Shown: positions 3,157 through 12,631 of the stretch, piece after piece
Numbering within the stretch: position 1 is the stretch's first letter
How the letters are laid out: each line of letters starts with the position of its first letter
Virus record (IMG/VR): IMGVR_UViG_3300038379_000130
Coordinates: 1 to 48,099 of that record
Length of the DNA stretch: 48,099 nucleotides
From: a virus
Taxonomy: Duplodnaviria > Caudoviricetes
Strand: one strand, 5' to 3'
Program-made: the position numbers and the translations under genes
The notes under the pieces: generated by a model
Database searches by the model: none
What the model saw: only the letters and a program-made list of their open reading frames with translations
What the model was told of the DNA's origin: nothing

Positions 3157-3633
3157 TCAGCCAACACGACCCCGTAGCGCCCGCGTCTCGAAGAACCCCA
3201 CGAGCACGACGTTCCGCGCCATGATCCGCCGCGCCAGCAGCGAACGCCACGAGTTGTTGCACCGGAACCCCTGCCGGTCCTTCGTCAGCCCCCGCGAGCT
3301 CCGGCGCACCAGCGCCAGATACAGGTTGATCTCCCCGCGCCGGTCCCCTGCCGCCCGGTCCTCCGTCGCCAGCCGCACCACCTCGGCCTCGACGTAGCGG
3401 CCCGCCTCCGTCTCGATCCACTCCGCGAAGGCCCGCTCTACCCGAGACTCGCCGGGGAGCGCCCGCTGGCCCCTCCGGGCTACCGGATGAGCCCGGTTGT
3501 AGGCCCGGTCGTAGCAAGCCCCGTTGTGGTACGCCTGCGCTGCTCTGTGCGGCACGAATAGGAGGCCGCAGCCGGCGCATTCCTTGGCCGCCAGAGCGCC
3601 AGACTCGCCCGTTACGGCCAAGTGAGAACTCAA
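3157..3633 (-). CDS. hypothetical phage protein (N-terminal CxxC, C-terminal NN.W...LAR.IM...FFETR)
   Basis: C-terminal part of ORF 3157..3825; probable TTG start overlapping the methyltransferase stop. Confidence 0.6.
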   Translation of the reverse strand: MSSHLAVTGESGALAAKECAGCGLLFVPHRAAQAYHNGACYDRAYNRAHPVARRGQRALPGESRVERAFAEWIETEAGRYVEAEVVRLATEDRAAGDRRGEINLYLALVRRSSRGLTKDRQGFRCNNSWRSLLARRIMARNVVLVGFFETRALRGRVG

Positions 3634-4787
3634 TCTAGCCCCTCCGCGTCGAGGATCGCTTTCCCGACCGCTGCCGCGCACTGCGGGACGACGGAGTTGC
3701 CGAGGGCTTTGAGCGCGGCCCGGCGGTAGCGTGAAAAAGCCACTCGTCCGAGAGTGCGGACGGCGGGGATAGCCATCCGTCCGGGAGCCCAAGCAGTTGC
3801 GCCACCCAATCGGGGTTGAGTCCATCCCGCGAGCCTCGGCGCTTCCCAGGGGTGCTGCTGCTCCCCTGGTCGAGCAGGCCAGCGGTTCGCGCTTCCGCCG
3901 TGAGGGCCGGCCGCTTCGGGCTGCCCGCCTGCTCGCAGTCCTGCGCTGTCGGTGTCGCCCAGCGATTGGCCTGAGTCCCCAGGTTGACGCCCACAGGATT
4001 CTCCGGGGTGCCCCTTGTCCCCTGCGTCGGCCCGCTGTCCTTCCAGTCCCGTGCCTGTGGGCTCGCCCACAGGCCGTTCGCCGCGTCCGTCAGCGTCGTC
4101 CCCGGATGCCGCCCGCTCTCCGTCGAGTAGCCCGCCGATCCGCTCGCCCGGCTGTCCTCGCCCGTCGCCGTGGGCCATAAGCGGGCCGCGGCCGTGAGCG
4201 TCTCCGCAGTCCCCCGCGCCACATGAGCACCCGCGCTCTCGCTGTCCTCCGCGCGTGGCGCGGGCCACTGCCGCACCTGCCCCCTTGGAGTCACCCAGTC
4301 TTCCAACGATCCAGATCCGGTCCCGCCCGTGCGGAGCGCCGACATGTCGGGCACCAACAACGACCGGCCAGACTTCGTAGCCCGCACTCTCAAGCTCACC
4401 GCACACCCAGTCAAGCCCGTGAGGTTCGAGGCTAGCGAGGCCGCGAGGGTTCTCTGCCACGACCCAGCGGGGACCAACCTCGCGGCAGACGCGGAGAAAC
4501 TCAGGCCAGAGCCATCGCACGTCAGCACTTCCCTGCCGTCGTCCTGCCACGCTGGCGGGCTGACAGGGCGGGCCTCCGGCAACAACGTCAACTGCGCCGC
4601 ACGCCGCCTTAACCGCATCGCCCGTCACCTCCCGCACGTCGTTCCATCGTGGCAGTCTTGGCCAGTGCTGCTCCAACCAGAACCGGCACGCGGGGTCGAT
4701 CTCGCACTGCCCGACCGTCTGCATCCCGGCCCACTCCAGACCAAGGTCGAAGCCGCCTATGCCGGAGAACAGAGAGAGGACGCGCAT
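3630..4787 (-). CDS. dcm: DNA (cytosine-5)-methyltransferase, alpha-like chain
   Basis: Motif I LFSGIGG, IV GGPPCQ, VI ENP, VIII-like PHGRDRIWIVG, X KALGNSVVPQ; motif IX is absent from this frame. Confidence 0.92.
   Translation of the reverse strand: MRVLSLFSGIGGFDLGLEWAGMQTVGQCEIDPACRFWLEQHWPRLPRWNDVREVTGDAVKAACGAVDVVAGGPPCQPASVAGRRQGSADVRWLWPEFLRVCREVGPRWVVAENPRGLASLEPHGLDWVCGELESAGYEVWPVVVGARHVGAPHGRDRIWIVGRLGDSKGAGAAVARATRGGQRERGCSCGAGDCGDAHGRGPLMAHGDGRGQPGERIGGLLDGERAASGDDADGRGERPVGEPTGTGLEGQRADAGDKGHPGESCGRQPGDSGQSLGDTDSAGLRAGGQPEAAGPHGGSANRWPARPGEQQHPWEAPRLAGWTQPRLGGATAWAPGRMAIPAVRTLGRVAFSRYRRAALKALGNSVVPQCAAAVGKAILDAEGLD
3635..4618 (-). CDS. nested out-of-frame ORF, putative beta subunit of the C5 methyltransferase
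   Basis: 327 aa wholly inside dcm; SD GGAGGTGA 6 nt before ATG; repeated W(P/A)(T/S/A)P segments; motif-IX-like LNPDWVAQLLGLPDGW. Confidence 0.7.
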   Translation of the reverse strand: MRLRRRAAQLTLLPEARPVSPPAWQDDGREVLTCDGSGLSFSASAARLVPAGSWQRTLAASLASNLTGLTGCAVSLRVRATKSGRSLLVPDMSALRTGGTGSGSLEDWVTPRGQVRQWPAPRAEDSESAGAHVARGTAETLTAAARLWPTATGEDSRASGSAGYSTESGRHPGTTLTDAANGLWASPQARDWKDSGPTQGTRGTPENPVGVNLGTQANRWATPTAQDCEQAGSPKRPALTAEARTAGLLDQGSSSTPGKRRGSRDGLNPDWVAQLLGLPDGWLSPPSALSDEWLFHATAGPRSKPSATPSSRSARQRSGKRSSTRRG

Positions 4788-4931
4788 TCACGGCTTGCGC
4801 CATGCCCGCAGCGCCCGGCGCGGATGGTTGTGCATAGCTTCAGAACTCGCCGTGTCCGCCACGCGCGACACATGGAACAGCACGGTTACTGCTGTCCATC
4901 GCAGCTTCGCGTCACGCCTCGTGAGGGTCAT
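4788..4931 (-). CDS. small hypothetical protein
   Basis: ATGA-coupled 47-aa ORF filling the gap between the two methyltransferases. Confidence 0.45.
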   Translation of the reverse strand: MTLTRRDAKLRWTAVTVLFHVSRVADTASSEAMHNHPRRALRAWRKP

Positions 4932-5818
4932 GCCGGCGTCTCCTCGGCGAAGAGCCGCCCTTGCGAGTCCTCGGCGCGCAGGTAGCCGACCGCTTGCTTG
5001 AAGTAGCTCTCCTTCAGCTCGACGCCAATGAAGCGGCGCCGGGCACGGAGCGCGCACACACCCTCGGAGCCGATGCCCATGAACGGCGAGAGCACGACGT
5101 CGCCGGGGTTTGACCAGAGAACCAGAGCCCGGTCGATCACGTCGAGTTGGAGTGGGCAGAGGTGGCGCTCATCCTTCGCCTCGCGAGCGAGCGCGACATT
5201 CAGCACACGGGTCTGGTCAACCGTCATCCATACAGGCGAGGCCCACTCCTGCCATTGCTCCACCGGAAAGTCCGCTCGCTCATGCGTGATCGGCTCGGGA
5301 TTGTCGCCCTCCTTTCGGAACACGAGCAGGTAGTCCGGCATACCAGCGCGCGAGCGACCAGAGTCCTTCAGGAGCTGCTTGTGGAGCAGGCCCAGCGCCT
5401 TCGTTCTCGTCATCTCGACCACGGGGGATTTCCAGATCGTGATCCGCGAAGCGAGCACCCAACCGACGGCCTCGTGGGCGCGAATGATTCGTCCCGATAG
5501 GTCTTTGATTCCGATCCGCCCGTCCTTCCATTTCTGGAGCGGCAAGTCGGAGCAGTGAACCGCAGAGAGTCGCCCCGGTTTGGTAGCGCGGTGAAGCTCA
5601 TACAGCAGATAGCCGTACTGCTCCTCGAACTCGTCGTCGTTCGCCGCATTGCCCATGTCGGCCGCGCTGTCTGAGTAGACGAAGAGATTCGAGAACGGAG
5701 GCGAGTAGACAGAAAATCCGATCGACTCCTCTGGCATCTGGCGCAGCATGTCCACGCAGTCTCCGTGGTATGCCGCGAAGTTGTCCCCGTGCGCCTCGCC
5801 GAGACATCTCACAGCCAT
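4928..5818 (-). CDS. DNA N4-cytosine/N6-adenine methyltransferase (beta class)
   Basis: Catalytic SPPF precedes SAM motif VLSPFMGIGSEG; HLCPLQLDVIDR; GVELKESYF. Confidence 0.9.
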   Translation of the reverse strand: MAVRCLGEAHGDNFAAYHGDCVDMLRQMPEESIGFSVYSPPFSNLFVYSDSAADMGNAANDDEFEEQYGYLLYELHRATKPGRLSAVHCSDLPLQKWKDGRIGIKDLSGRIIRAHEAVGWVLASRITIWKSPVVEMTRTKALGLLHKQLLKDSGRSRAGMPDYLLVFRKEGDNPEPITHERADFPVEQWQEWASPVWMTVDQTRVLNVALAREAKDERHLCPLQLDVIDRALVLWSNPGDVVLSPFMGIGSEGVCALRARRRFIGVELKESYFKQAVGYLRAEDSQGRLFAEETPA

Positions 5819-7212
5819 GCCGGAAGCCTCCCCTGATGACGCGGCTCGTATAGCCGCCGCTGTTCGCGCGTGGTGCCGAGTGCCCGCTTCATTGCCTCGG
5901 CCATCTCGCGGCGCATTCGGCTGTTCTCGTCAGCCTTGCGGTCCACGACGCGGCCGATATGGTCCTCGCCCTCCGCGACTACGAGATGCACCTCGACTTG
6001 GCGGAGCTGCCCGAAGCGCCAGCAACGGCGCACGGCCTGGTGATACGTCTCGTAGGAGAACGAGCGGCCGACGAAAGCCATGCGGGCGCAGTGCTGCAGG
6101 TTCAGCCCGTAGCCGCACGAGGACGGCTTCGCGATCAAGATGCGAGCCGAGCCATCAAGGAACGCCGCGACCGCATCCTCCTTCGCTTCGATGCTGTGTG
6201 AGCCGCGCACCTCGACGGTCCCGCCCGGAGCATCGCCGATGACGTCGAGCAGGGCGTCGGCTTCGTAGTTGGTGTCACACCAGACGAGCCATGGCTCCGC
6301 GCGGTCGCCCCACACGAGATCGGCGACGATCGCGGCCCGCGCGCCGGCCGTCTGGCGCTTCACGCGGTGCATGTCCGTGGCCGATACAGCCGCGTCGGCG
6401 AACAGCATCCCCGGCAGCGGCTTCGCCGCAGCCTCGCCGACACGATGCCGGTGGACTACAAACGGCGGGAGATCGAAGCCTGGCACGTCATCGCCCAGGT
6501 CACGCGGATGGTCGGCCGCCCGAGCCCAAGAGGCGACCCAATCCCAGAACGATCTGATGGCATGGCCCTTGAGTCTCCAGGTTCCCGTGCCCGCACTGTC
6601 GTTCACGAACCAGCGAACGAGCATCTCCTCACGCGTCAAGACTCCGCAGAACGCGGAGTGCTGCGCGAGCTCGGTATGGTCGTTCGGCGCCGGGGTCGCG
6701 CTCGCCGATAGCCTCCAGCGGTGTCCGGCGAAGGCCTCGATCAGCGCGCGCGAGGTCGCCCCGGTGAAGCTCTTGAGGATGCTGCTCTCGTTGAGGGCGA
6801 CAGCGCCGAACGCCTGCGGGTCGAGCTTGTCCAGGCGGTCGTAGTTGCAGACGTTGACGCCCGGCCGTGCATCGTCCTGGCTGCGGATCACACGCACGTC
6901 GTAGCCGAGCGACTTGCCTTCAGCCTCGATCTGGCGCGCCACCGCGAGCGGGGTCAGGATCAGCGCGTACCCGTTCGAGAGGCGCGCCGCCTCTTGGCCC
7001 CACCACAACTCGACGCGCGTCTTTCCGAGACCGGTCCCGAGCCAGCACGCCCAGGAGCCGGCGCGGAGCCCGAACGTAGCGCAGGCTCCCTGGTACGGGA
7101 AGAGGTGATCCGGCGGCATCGGCGGGCTCTCGATCCCGCGCAACGGGGCGACGACTGCGCGGCGCGCCAGAAACTCCATGTAGGCATCGCGCTGCCCGTT
7201 CATGCCGCTCAC
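5809..7212 (-). CDS. SF2 (SNF2-like) helicase/ATPase
   Basis: GTGLGKT, NESSILK (DESS-like), SATPAPND, GYGLNLQ, QAVRRCWRFGQ. Confidence 0.88.
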   Translation of the reverse strand: MSGMNGQRDAYMEFLARRAVVAPLRGIESPPMPPDHLFPYQGACATFGLRAGSWACWLGTGLGKTRVELWWGQEAARLSNGYALILTPLAVARQIEAEGKSLGYDVRVIRSQDDARPGVNVCNYDRLDKLDPQAFGAVALNESSILKSFTGATSRALIEAFAGHRWRLSASATPAPNDHTELAQHSAFCGVLTREEMLVRWFVNDSAGTGTWRLKGHAIRSFWDWVASWARAADHPRDLGDDVPGFDLPPFVVHRHRVGEAAAKPLPGMLFADAAVSATDMHRVKRQTAGARAAIVADLVWGDRAEPWLVWCDTNYEADALLDVIGDAPGGTVEVRGSHSIEAKEDAVAAFLDGSARILIAKPSSCGYGLNLQHCARMAFVGRSFSYETYHQAVRRCWRFGQLRQVEVHLVVAEGEDHIGRVVDRKADENSRMRREMAEAMKRALGTTREQRRLYEPRHQGRLPAWL

Positions 7213-8091: not shown

Positions 8092-8345
8092 GGCCTTCCC
8101 CCTCCTCCGCAGAAGACGCGCAGAACTTCCTGCATCGCCTGGTACCGACCGAACATCGCTCCCAAGCGGTCGAACATCTCGAGCGCGCTCATCACGCGGC
8201 GCGTCTCGTCCGCGACCTTGGCGATGGCTTCGGTGTCGGGGCGAGTGGCGCCGCACCGCGGGCACCGGCGCAGGCTCGCTGCGCGGATCGGCTGCGCGCA
8301 AAGGCACGTCCACTCACTCTCACGCGGCGTCGGGCCGCTGCTCAT
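8088..8345 (-). CDS. small zinc-finger protein
   Basis: WTCLC...CPRCG; ATGA-coupled. Confidence 0.55.
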   Translation of the reverse strand: MSSGPTPRESEWTCLCAQPIRAASLRRCPRCGATRPDTEAIAKVADETRRVMSALEMFDRLGAMFGRYQAMQEVLRVFCGGGGRP

Positions 8346-8776
8346 GCGCCTTCTCTCCTGCCCCTCGGCGGCGGGACGCGGATGCCCTCCTCCGTCGCGT
8401 GGTCGATCACGGCCTGCAGGAACACCGAGAACTGCGCGACCGTGAGATCCGCGATCGAGGGCGGCTCTCGCATCTCGACCGCTCCCAGCTTGCGGTAGGG
8501 CCAGAACTCCACCGGGACGATGGGCGGCAGGTGCTTCTCTTTCAGGCGGAAGTGCAGCTCGCCCGGATCGGCCCAGCCCCACTCGTCGGCGAGGAGAGGG
8601 AGCACGGTCGAGCGGTAGTAGCCGTGCTGGTCCTGCGTCGGCCGCTCTGCGCCGGTCCGCGTCACGGTCACGTAGACGTCGTGGCCGGCATGGCGCTTGA
8701 GGGCCGTCCGGAATGCGGCGACGTGGTGGATCTTCAGGATGCCACGGTCGTCCACGCGGGCCTCGTGGCGGGTCAT
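8342..8776 (-). CDS. NinB/YbcN-like recombination protein
   Basis: RPTQDQHGYY...ELHFRLKEKHL...SIADLTVAQFSVFLQAV...EEGIRVP pattern; start taken at ATG 8776, just past the repeat array. Confidence 0.65.
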   Translation of the reverse strand: MTRHEARVDDRGILKIHHVAAFRTALKRHAGHDVYVTVTRTGAERPTQDQHGYYRSTVLPLLADEWGWADPGELHFRLKEKHLPPIVPVEFWPYRKLGAVEMREPPSIADLTVAQFSVFLQAVIDHATEEGIRVPPPRGRREGA

Positions 8777-8777
8777 C

Positions 8778-8858
8778 ACGAACGTCCCTTGCCTTGCCTT
8801 GCCTTGCCCTGCCACGCCATACCCATCCCAGCCGCGCCTCGCCATGGCGTGCCTCGCA
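8778..8858 (-). ncRNA. GGY-NN pentamer array 3 (14 units plus tail GGGACGTTCGT), candidate guide RNA
   Basis: Minus strand: TGCGA GGCAC GCCAT GGCGA GGCGC GGCTG GGATG GGTAT GGCGT GGCAG GGCAA GGCAA GGCAA GGCAA GGGACGTTCGT. The repeat is certain; RNA status is inferred. Confidence 0.7.
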
Positions 8859-9365
8859 TCAGATCGTTCCGAGCATCAGCTTCAGGCTGTCGCCGGGCTT
8901 CAGCTCGTTCCGCTTCGCCGCTTCCATGTTCGCTCCGAGCCTCTGCATCGCTCGCGGGCTAGCCATCGCTTGGATAGCCCCGGCCTGCGCCGCGATGATG
9001 TTGTGCTCGCGTCGCTTCTCGGGAGGCAACGCGTCCCACTTCTCGACATTCGCGAGGGCACGACGCGCTCGCCTGGCCTGCCGCCCGGCCTTGTGCGTCC
9101 GCAGGCTCCCGATGTCGATCTTCAATAGATCGTCCGCTCGCTTGAGTCCGACGTTCGGAACCGCGACGAACTCGAAGCCGGATTCGCGCGAGAGGATCGC
9201 GCAGGCTCGCGCGACGTGATGTCGCCCGGTGGTTTGCGGGTTGTCGCCGATGGCCTCGGCGAGCGCAGCGTAGGGCACTACCTCAAGCTCTGCGGCTTGG
9301 CTCAGCAGCTTGACTGCCGCCCACGTCTCCGCGCTGCGCTCTGGAATCGACTTGCCTACTGCCAT
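8859..9365 (-). CDS. accessory protein of the pentamer-array locus, possible winged-helix N-terminus
   Basis: 168 aa, SD AGGGGGGAG; VVPYAALAEAIG...VARACAILSRESGFEFVAVPNVGLKR; lies between arrays 2 and 3. Confidence 0.7.
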   Translation of the reverse strand: MAVGKSIPERSAETWAAVKLLSQAAELEVVPYAALAEAIGDNPQTTGRHHVARACAILSRESGFEFVAVPNVGLKRADDLLKIDIGSLRTHKAGRQARRARRALANVEKWDALPPEKRREHNIIAAQAGAIQAMASPRAMQRLGANMEAAKRNELKPGDSLKLMLGTI

Positions 9366-9377
9366 CGGCTCCCCCCT

Positions 9378-9448
9378 ACGAACGTCCCTTGCCTTGCCTT
9401 GCCTGGCCGCGCCGCGCCGCGCCTTGCCTCGCTTGGCCTCGCCTCGCC
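9378..9448 (-). ncRNA. GGY-NN pentamer array 2 (12 units plus tail GGGACGTTCGT), candidate guide RNA
   Basis: Minus strand: GGCGA GGCGA GGCCA AGCGA GGCAA GGCGC GGCGC GGCGC GGCCA GGCAA GGCAA GGCAA GGGACGTTCGT. Confidence 0.7.
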
Positions 9449-9452
9449 GAAC

Positions 9453-10028
9453 TCAGTTCCAGCGGATCGACTTCACCGCGAACCGCCCGTAGTACCCGTT
9501 GTTCCTCGGGCGAAACCGCCCGATCCCGATGAAGTTGCCCGCCTCCCGGAGATGCTGCTCGAACACCTCCGGTGTGATCGTGTCGTCGAGAATGTGGAAC
9601 TGGACCTTTCCGCTCCACTTCCGCACCAGCGGGAAGCACTTCGACACCCGCTTCCCGTCCCCGCGCCGGCCGCTCGCCGGGACGAACAGCCACTCGCCTT
9701 CGACCTCTTCCTTCTTGATCGGCAACGGCAGCCCTTCCAGCACCATCACTCCCGCCTCGAAGTGCTTCGTGTAGGTGCTCTTGCCCTTGCCGGGGATCTG
9801 CATCGAGAGGTACTTCGCGATCTCGGCGATGCAGTTCTTGAACGCCATCGGGGGGATGAAGAGCTTCCCCTCGGAGTCGACATGGCACCGCTCGCGCCAC
9901 GTCCGGATCTCGTAGTCCTTCGCCGTTTCCGTGTCCGCTCCTGTCGGCCTGCCGAGCTTGGGTATCTCGTAGTGCTTGCCCTGGCTGTACGGCGAGATCC
10001 CCTCAAGTTCTACGGTTGCGATCCTCAT
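9453..10028 (-). CDS. stand-alone Cas7/RAMP-like protein
   Basis: 191 aa; N-terminal strand IATVELEGISPY; GKLFIPPMAFKNCI (cf. RAMP IPGSSxKG); C-terminal G-rich loop AGNFIGIGRFRPRNNGYYGRFAV. Confidence 0.75.
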   Translation of the reverse strand: MRIATVELEGISPYSQGKHYEIPKLGRPTGADTETAKDYEIRTWRERCHVDSEGKLFIPPMAFKNCIAEIAKYLSMQIPGKGKSTYTKHFEAGVMVLEGLPLPIKKEEVEGEWLFVPASGRRGDGKRVSKCFPLVRKWSGKVQFHILDDTITPEVFEQHLREAGNFIGIGRFRPRNNGYYGRFAVKSIRWN

Positions 10029-10047
10029 TGCCCATCCCCCACTCGTT

Positions 10048-10148
10048 AGAACGCCCCTTGCCTTGCCTTGCCTTGCCGAGCCCAGCCAAGACCCGTCTTG
10101 CCGGGTCTGGACGCGCGTTGCCTGGCCCAGCCAAAGCCTTGCTGCGCG
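10048..10148 (-). ncRNA. GGY-NN pentamer array 1 (15 in-phase units plus tail GGGGCGTTCT), candidate guide RNA
   Basis: Minus strand: ...AGCAA GGCTT T GGCTG GGCCA GGCAA CGCGC GTCCA GACCC GGCAA GACGG GTCTT GGCTG GGCTC GGCAA GGCAA GGCAA GGCAA GGGGCGTTCT. Confidence 0.65.
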
Positions 10149-10149
10149 G

Positions 10150-10917
10150 TCACCCGAGCCTCCGCGTCAGCGCCTCTTCGAGCTCGATCGAAACACCCGG
10201 AATCGTCCGCACGCCCGCGGCCACGGCCGCGCGGATCGCCTTCTCATCCGGCATGAGGTACTGCCGCGGGACCGCCGCCGGATCGACGATCGAGAAGCCC
10301 CACCGCTCCCGGCTGGACACGCTCCCCGAGTCCGTCTTCACGCCCCGCGTCATCTCCCGCGGCATGTCCAGCAGCGCCACCGCCTGAGCCTTCGACGCCG
10401 CCTCAGCATCCGCCAACGCCTTCGCCCGAGCCTTCTCCGTCTTCGCCTTCTCCGCCTCCGCGAGCGCCTTCGCCTCGGCCCGCGCCGCCTCCTCCTGACG
10501 CCGACGCTGTTCCTCCTGCTCCCGAGCAATCCGCGCCCGCTTGACCTGGCGGTACGCCAAGAGCAGCCGCTCCAGAACCCCGCCCTTCCCGAAGAGCTGG
10601 TCCGCCGGATCGGTCACGACCTTGAACAGCGCGTTCACCGCCTTGACCTCGGCGTTGAGCGGATCGACTCTCGACCGGCGTAGCGCGTCAAGCTCGCGCA
10701 TCGCCGCCGTCCCGCGCGCCAGGAACTCGGCCGCGCGGCCCTCCTCGGTGTCGTTCTCGATCGGCGTCCGCGCCATCTCCATCGAGATGGACCGGACCTC
10801 GCGCGCCATCATCTCGAGCTTCGCGAGCTGGGGCTCGTCGAGGAGCTGGACCGCCTCGTCCACGCTGTCGGCGGGCAGGTACCTCGCGAGGGCCGTCACG
10901 ACCTCGGGGCCGCTCAC
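10150..10917 (-). CDS. coiled-coil protein, Gp157/Gam-like, recombination-associated
   Basis: GTGA-coupled start at 10917; long coiled coil, then IVDPAAVPRQYLMPDEKAIRAAV...IPGVSI. Confidence 0.7.
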   Translation of the reverse strand: MSGPEVVTALARYLPADSVDEAVQLLDEPQLAKLEMMAREVRSISMEMARTPIENDTEEGRAAEFLARGTAAMRELDALRRSRVDPLNAEVKAVNALFKVVTDPADQLFGKGGVLERLLLAYRQVKRARIAREQEEQRRRQEEAARAEAKALAEAEKAKTEKARAKALADAEAASKAQAVALLDMPREMTRGVKTDSGSVSSRERWGFSIVDPAAVPRQYLMPDEKAIRAAVAAGVRTIPGVSIELEEALTRRLG

Positions 10918-12344: not shown

Positions 12345-12560
12345 TTAGCCCTTGGCCTTGCGCGGCCGGCCGATCTTCGGATCAGGAGGCGCGCTACCGC
12401 TCTTGGCCGTCGCGATGAGCATTGCGACCGGCCCAGGGATTCGACATTCCCCGGAAAGCCAGCGACTGACGGCCGATTCGGACACGGTTAGATAGCGGGC
12501 CAACCGAGCCTGCCTCCAGCCCAGCGCATCTAGCGCGGATCGCAATTGGCTGCTCGTCAC
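12345..12560 (-). CDS. XRE/Cro-like HTH regulator
   Basis: LRSALDALGWRQARLARYLTVSESAVSRWLSG. Confidence 0.85.
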   Translation of the reverse strand: MTSSQLRSALDALGWRQARLARYLTVSESAVSRWLSGECRIPGPVAMLIATAKSGSAPPDPKIGRPRKAKG

Positions 12561-12566
12561 GGTCGG

Positions 12567-12595
12567 AATCTAATGCGCCCCGATGTGAAATGCAA
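12567..12595 (-). promoter_or_regulatory. sigma70-type promoter for the HTH gene
   Basis: TTGCAT-17 nt-TAGATT, followed 6 nt later by the GTG start; AT-rich tract upstream. Confidence 0.65.
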
Positions 12596-12631
12596 GCATT
12601 ATTTTTCTGCTAGGATCTACCTGTCGAGGGG

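Follow-up and report, generated by a model that had tools for sequence, protein, structure and literature searches.

Three GGY/NN arrays interleaved with vipr- and vap-like genes mark a probable VIPR cassette in a viral record

The stretch of DNA analysed here (the window), 48,099 bases long and 68% G+C, is a virus record that contains terminase, portal, scaffold and head genes. Between 10152 and 8774 its minus strand presents in succession the stop codon of an upstream gene, a first array of five-base units, a gene for a 191-aa protein, a second array, a gene for a 168-aa protein, a third array and the start of a NinB-like gene, which is the array-gene-array-gene-array order given in a preliminary description of the locus. 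The two flanking genes are placed outside the system. The downstream one (8342..8776, minus strand) matches phrog_72 at E 7.7e-4, in keeping with the NinB-like label it had been given; the upstream one (10150..10900, minus strand, start approximate) had been called Gp157-like, a label that Pfam did not bear out (no Gp157 match); it is recovered by phrog_10477 ('exonuclease') at E 1e-11. Searches of 43 of the 105 ORFs (at least 150 aa) with PHROGs and of 27 proteins with Pfam recovered no cas gene, nuclease or integrase, and over the same set the earlier statement that cas1/2, a nuclease and a CRISPR array are lacking holds. Neither promoter-like nor terminator-like sites were found inside the cassette. 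The only promoter-like site detected, at 12627-12598, precedes all genes of the leftward run; with no terminator-like site detected, this arrangement fits co-transcription without proving it. The 71-aa gene behind this site (12345-12627, minus strand) is one that we take, from its resemblance, to encode a small helix-turn-helix regulator. Genes for two DNA methyltransferases and for a SNF2-like helicase lie downstream of the cassette, at 3630-7212 on the minus strand.

All three arrays are predicted to encode guide RNAs (vrRNAs). Array 1 (10058..10148, minus strand) consists of three units (10148-10134), a slip of one base that leaves these off register, and a main register of 15 units (10132-10058), ten of which have an exact GGY triplet; its middle is degenerate, with GAC, GTC and CGC triplets. 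Array 2 (9389..9448, minus strand) has 12 units, 11 of them with exact GGY, and array 3 (8789..8858, minus strand) has 14, of which 11 are exact. The five-base period and the GG(C/T)/NN pattern described earlier thus stand, except that array 1 departs from them in its degenerate middle and its register slip. Equally sound were the placement of the arrays a few nucleotides from stop codons (the first units of arrays 1, 2 and 3 lie 1, 3 and 0 bases past them) and the form of their ends, in which a terminal run of four, three and four GGCAA units, respectively, leads into GGG(A/G)CGTTC. This shared nine-base 3' end occupies 10049..10057 in array 1 (GGGGCGTTC), 9380..9388 in array 2 (GGGACGTTC) and 8780..8788 in array 3, always on the minus strand, and is delimited by the sequence itself and, for arrays 1 and 2, also by the comparison of same-locus arrays. 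A scan of the window found it on the minus strand exclusively at these three array ends, and on the plus strand in two copies without arrays. Array 3 ends 12 bases ahead of the NinB-like ATG (8776) and its shared end only 3 bases from it, so that this end overlaps the likely ribosome-binding site of that gene. Windows of 12 units hold 7, 11 and 10 exact GGY triplets in arrays 1, 2 and 3, against fewer than six in every other cluster of the window and a maximum of 6/12 across 30 Markov-simulated windows; GGY/NN five-base tracts in the window are confined to these three arrays. For the cassette, no Rfam family came near threshold and no Rfam ribozyme matched. The degenerate middle of array 1 (10089-10113, minus strand) can form a small hairpin in the centroid structure, which, going by this predicted fold, could impede loading or signal a processing site. 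No usable guide variants were present in the contigs of two DNA runs (array 3 was left out as a repeat), and a search for sister arrays with the same end returned a single unrelated locus.

The preliminary description had pointed to phage systems of this design under the name VIPR, and rightly so: a Vipr protein with GGY/NN guide RNAs is described in 10.64898/2026.04.26.720920, where seven types are defined. In the VIPR preprints a system combines the RAMP protein Vipr with an accessory gene, vap, and with vrRNAs built of 9-16 GGY/NN units; such systems sit mostly in viral or proviral DNA, and their guides are described as RNAs of about 100 nt to which Vipr binds. One Vipr protomer is reported to occupy each repeat and present the NN (10.64898/2026.04.26.720927), and the NN is reported to pair with double-stranded DNA with one base skipped, usually the wobble base, whereby rival phages or satellites are silenced (10.64898/2026.04.26.720920, 10.64898/2026.04.26.720927, 10.64898/2026.10.15.759431, 10.64898/2026.10.21.760802). 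In the available texts of the VIPR preprints, filament assembly, GGY sequestration, skip-1 NN pairing and PAM-free silencing are demonstrated for SUSP1 and Pseudomonas fulva only. The type II system of Escherichia phage SUSP1 is reported to consist of Vipr, vap1 and four vrRNAs (PDB 36pp; 10.64898/2026.04.26.720920, 10.64898/2026.04.26.720927, 10.64898/2026.10.15.759431). The vap1 product of type II is described as DNA-binding and winged-helix-like.

The 191-aa product of the gene at 9453..10028 (minus strand), a predicted single-RRM RAMP protein, found SUSP1 Vipr (36pp) as its sole match at E<=10 when used as a single sequence against PDB sequences (E 5.4e-4), and a profile of 52 sequences recovered the same entry at E 3.2e-6, with the next match at 0.049. 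Furthermore, hhalign of its family against SUSP1 Vipr gave 96% over 130 columns, and phrog_4652 takes in both proteins (1e-96 for SUSP1 Vipr, 8.5e-12 for the 191-aa protein), which are 24% identical. Neither this protein nor the 168-aa one falls in a Pfam or NCBIfam family, and their Atlas neighbours are unnamed viral clusters. An AlphaFold2 model of the 191-aa protein (pLDDT 88.2) has type VII Cas7 and Csm3 as its top Foldseek matches (E 3e-7; VIA Z 10.6, rmsd 4.0, 149 aligned) in fold libraries that run to 8 April 2026 and that the VIPR structures postdate. The RAMP fold proposed earlier is thus supported by structure comparison with Cas7/Csm3 and by sequence comparison with SUSP1 Vipr, and on these sequence matches and this model we identify the protein as a Vipr homolog with a RAMP fold. 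The RRM core, the thumb and the G-loop AGNFIGIGRFRP are present, with residues 173-179 poorly modelled. In the SUSP1 clade GGY is read by H17, R138, D177, W178 and R179. SUSP1 residues K82, K88 and R179 are retained here as K72, K88 and R173, W178 is replaced by F172, and the counterpart of H17 is ambiguous in the alignment. SUSP1 R138 aligns with F132 (F in 119/120 close homologs) and D177 with R171 (R in 117/120). A helix is also missing from the model at residues 11-35, the region of the SUSP1 bundle residues K33 and R39. Since alanine substitution of either R138 or D177 is reported in the SUSP1 VIPR papers to abolish silencing, the replacement of both, together with the missing helix, suggests that the chemistry may differ from that of SUSP1 Vipr.

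The 168-aa product of the second gene (8859..9365, minus strand) has 8 close and 2,023 distant representatives. A profile built from 158 relatives matches the gene that follows SUSP1 vipr at E 9.7e-5 in a search of 14,206 six-frame ORFs, and hhalign of the family against SUSP1 Vap1 gave 68.9% (E 4.5e-5), versus 3% with a shallow alignment; the protein has no direct phrog_5926 match. Members of its family occur in 99 of 125 Vipr loci, a count that includes duplicates and takes the best 80 of 178 metagenome loci. Its model (pLDDT 94.7) combines a helix-strand N-terminal part, winged-helix-like by prediction, with long helices, and against the PDB finds weak matches only, mostly to winged-helix proteins. 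Based on the family profile, hhalign, linkage to vipr homologs and the model, we read it as a distant Vap1-like accessory that would bind DNA.

We then examined the neighborhoods of vipr homologs, whose family comprises 3,370 clusters at 90% identity. A tblastn search of a phage collection with Vipr returned 114 records; among the 60 matches listed, most come from enterobacterial phages, and one of these, Mijalis, has a gene that barely differs from SUSP1 Vipr. Homologs of SUSP1 Vipr are also found on Azospirillum and Bradyrhizobium plasmids (H61-H66). From 45 viral loci and the best 80 of 178 metagenome loci (125 in all, 100 of them unique), GGY arrays were found within 1.5 kb of vipr in 70 of the 100 unique loci, on the same strand in 58 and only on the opposite strand in 12 (L016, L025, L098, L109 and eight more), against one array per 1.0 Mb of simulated DNA scored in the same way. 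The flanking of homologs by such arrays is thus borne out over this set. Where arrays lie only opposite vipr, the guides must have a transcript of their own. The scoring used detected no GGY array at the other 30 loci (e.g. L010, L012, L020, L028-L030, L033), whose Vipr homologs are close (45-65% identity); these loci may have other triplets, truncated arrays or borrowed guides. The 215 arrays of the clade have a median of 13 units, with G at 78% and 87% and a pyrimidine at 99% in the three triplet positions, and an interior NN information content of about 3.8-3.9 bits; their last three units are often AA (96, 107 and 80 of 215).

Several further loci merit mention. In L006 and L009, arrays of the same 3' end also stand 2 to 5 kb from vipr in other intergenic gaps, and one L006 guide finds an 18/20 match at skip 1 in the DNA of L009, a related locus, close to its vipr region. 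The arrays L005:5937 and L059:4816 bear an identical 12-unit dinucleotide string and are the same guide in different records. Phage DSL-LC04 (OR003939; L047:1500-1780), either cultured or deposited, has a Vipr annotated as 'helix-turn-helix transcriptional regulator' with GGY arrays upstream, and its partner gene does not match the Vap1-like profile.

Taken with the chance tests on the window, these comparisons bear on the simplest alternative, namely that the arrays are GC-rich, microsatellite-like repeats that happen to lie beside an unrelated RRM protein. A genome of 68% G+C in which GGC is common is the kind in which this might be suspected; however, the chance tests on both the window and the homolog loci, the shared 3' end of the arrays, the homology to SUSP1 Vipr (PDB 36pp) and Vap1, and the occurrence of arrays in AT-richer relatives as well all speak against it, and we have rejected it as having practically no chance of being correct.

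The position of the arrays relative to the genes raises a second alternative, in which they act mainly as cis operators, Vipr binding its own mRNA to control translation of the operon, with targeting in trans absent or vestigial. Among the loci with vap after vipr, 29 of 65 have an array in between; for 25 of these 29 the array begins no more than 25 nt from the vipr stop, and for 20 it stops no more than 30 nt from the vap start. At several loci the final AAGG passes directly into the ribosome-binding site, and array 3 of the window, as noted, likewise overlaps that of the next gene. An operator, however, has no need of hypervariable, codon-like dinucleotides, and many loci have clusters of arrays far from gene starts, some of them on the opposite strand. 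The terminal AA|GG, present in 163 of 210 arrays, is moreover common whether or not an ATG follows (21/23 with, 142/187 without, p 0.12), on which ground we reject the idea that the AA end stems purely from a ribosome-binding site. We therefore consider a mainly cis-acting role very unlikely.

The same loci define how the guides end. Identity between same-locus arrays falls to background beyond about 10 nt past the end (242 pairs, 42 loci), whereas the four SUSP1 tails have positions in common out to about base 36. The 3' spacers of the window arrays have folding z-scores of -0.46, 0.59 and 1.14, which are nothing unusual; a structured 3' tail of about 40 nt with a pseudoknot was not found at these arrays, which have only the 9 bases in common, and a structured guide tail is rejected by these z-scores together with the loss of identity past about 10 nt. 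In light of the homolog arrays placed between genes and their roughly 10 shared end bases, the interleaved, short-ended layout appears to be a trait of the clade.

Set against known systems, the locus has a stand-alone RAMP homolog, GGY/NN arrays of 15, 12 and 14 units, a minimal vipr plus vap locus and a viral location, as VIPR does, and by sequence comparison the cassette is, in our assessment, real, correctly read and a further member of that family. The claim of a candidate RNA-guided system is consequently supported in substance, as VIPR, and not in novelty, since systems of this kind were published in 2026 preprints and what had been offered as a new candidate is already described. With SUSP1 it shares a homologous Vipr of the same PHROG, a putative, distantly Vap1-like partner, gene order, phage encoding without a cas1 or CRISPR array having been seen, and GGY/NN units, 12-15 per guide here against 9-16 in the paper. 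It differs in placing a guide between vipr and vap, which in SUSP1 are 2 bases apart; in guides that are GGC-based, with a (GGCAA)3-4 end and about 9-10 shared bases in place of the SUSP1 pseudoknot tail of about 40 bases; and in the F and R that replace SUSP1 R138 and D177. The cassette probably functions as SUSP1 VIPR does, but its missing long tail and different pocket residues place it outside the SUSP1 clade. The prophage VIPR of P. fulva resembles it in having three guides (vrRNA1-3), vipr and vap1 and, as far as the available text of 10.64898/2026.04.26.720927 goes, no SUSP1-like 3' pseudoknot marker, although the P. fulva Vipr is reported to keep H17 and the thumb arginine R136. The one-base slip of array 1 and the back-to-back arrays of some relatives are reminiscent of the staggered VIPR arrays mentioned in the legend of Fig. 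S18 of 10.64898/2026.04.26.720920. DNA-binding Vaps are likewise described for types VI and VII in the available VIPR texts, comparable to the DNA binding we predict for the Vap1-like partner, whereas the nuclease or helicase Vaps of types III-V have no counterpart at the window cassette. The RAMP fold, thumb and G-loop are shared with Cas7/Csm3 of class 1 CRISPR systems (types III and VII); with a single RAMP gene, no cas match in the scanned ORFs, no cas operon or repeat-spacer array, a guide period of 5 bases against 6, and a non-contiguous code, the locus falls outside class 1 CRISPR-Cas.

We next considered how the guides might be read. For 187 deduplicated guides with the last three units removed (28 of 215 were dropped as short or redundant), the dinucleotides best fit codon positions 1-2, sense or antisense, with a log-likelihood of -5936 versus -6005, -6277 and -6050 for the other models, a lead of at least 69 log units. 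The sense-antisense spread between guides is 2.08, as against 2.09 +/- 0.20 for simulated skip 1 and 0.92-1.01 for skip 0, 2 and 3; it is 1.66 with runs of identical units collapsed and 1.79 with one guide per locus, and random strand-spread scores have a 95th percentile of 1.57 and a maximum of 1.74. With the collapsed value only just above that 95th percentile, the guide composition of the clade supports the 1-base skip rule moderately.

Searches for targets yielded none above chance. Public collections were scanned at skip 1, and skips 0, 2 and 3 were applied to local sequences. The window guides have no self target at skip 0-2 (best at skip 1, 14/18, 14/20 and 17/30), and the available text of the VIPR paper likewise reports none for its guides. 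With 205 clade guides, skip 1 was not above shuffled guides in 1.4 Mb of VIPR loci (15 vs 9 at >=85%) or in 1.6 Mb of phage relatives (10 vs 8 at >=85%), small sets that need not contain targets. Array 3 had no match in viral contigs with 10 units exact at skip 1; with 8 units it had nine loci, the best, at 18/20, being a single site common to L133, L134, L137 and L159; it falls in a capsid gene (PF13252), where the skipped base is the wobble position. This site was not accepted, because about five independent seed matches give such a one-unit extension about 30% of the time. Relatives of the phage's own capsid (67 loci) and one of a neighbouring gene had nothing above shuffled guides. With 9 units, array 3 found 7 loci in GTDB genomes, versus about 17 expected from uniform composition. 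Array 1 with 8 units at skip 1 had 12 loci, of which the two best, at chance level, were L142 (19/22), without a long in-phase reading frame, and L145 (18/22). The L145 gene is presumably a terminase large subunit, to judge by its motifs. Array 2 with 9 units at skip 1 matched five loci exactly (18/18) in unrelated genes, which were not accepted because this low-complexity string encodes a charged helix of a common kind. Convergence of a second guide on the record of a candidate target was seen in no case, and when the loci of other vipr or vap genes or guides were taken as targets, the best score was 15-16 of 18-22.

These results bear on a third alternative, that the system is a VIPR with a reading rule unlike that of SUSP1, using another skip length or an RNA target instead of DNA. 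It would account for the changes at the GGY-binding residues equivalent to R138 and D177, for the short bundle region of the model, and for the lack of a skip-1 target in public collections scanned at skip 1 alone. Yet the guide composition corresponds to a period-3 reading of coding DNA, unlike skip 0, 2 and 3, and conservation of K82 and K88, the lysines that clamp the non-target strand, favours double-stranded DNA; on balance we find a different rule quite unlikely.

Taken together, the anatomy of the locus, the homology of its two proteins with SUSP1 Vipr and Vap1, a model with a RAMP fold and the linkage of gene and array across relatives, all observed here, lead us to propose that this is very probably a phage VIPR cassette, consisting of Vipr, a Vap1-like partner and three likely guide arrays, with silencing of a competing virus as its likely role. 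The cassette would be co-transcribed inside a leftward recombination operon, and the guides would remain as Vipr-protected pieces of its mRNA. Vipr would coat the RNA of each array with one subunit per five-base unit; the terminal GGCAA run would be no part of the code but a constant 3' handle, leaving 9 to 11 variable units that would spell 18 to 22 informative bases, two per codon. If the skip rule carries over from SUSP1, these units would pair with double-stranded DNA, and a rival phage or satellite in the host would have its genes silenced by the complex with Vap.

As a tentative extension of this proposal, which we regard as doubtful, this large clade of 3,370 clusters might represent a tail-less VIPR branch in which guides are cut from the stretch of operon mRNA that separates a stop codon from the next ribosome-binding site, with the GGCAA run as the point of nucleation and a pocket rewired to F132/R171 as the reader. 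A filament over the ribosome-binding site of the next gene would mean that Vipr both makes guides and throttles its own cassette. No description of a tail-less guide type was found in the texts of the VIPR preprints, whose figures may show one. Were this so, no programmable VIPR RNA would be more minimal than these guides, unstructured and 60-80 bases long.

Being one more locus of a family described in 2026, the cassette is a small surprise. It does offer a compact test case, with three almost tail-less guides, a Vipr in which two residues that SUSP1 needs are replaced, and an accessory gene, and it could show how VIPR guides arise when no structured tail is present, whether the whole family skips one base and whether a shorter guide scaffold can be used for programmable repression.
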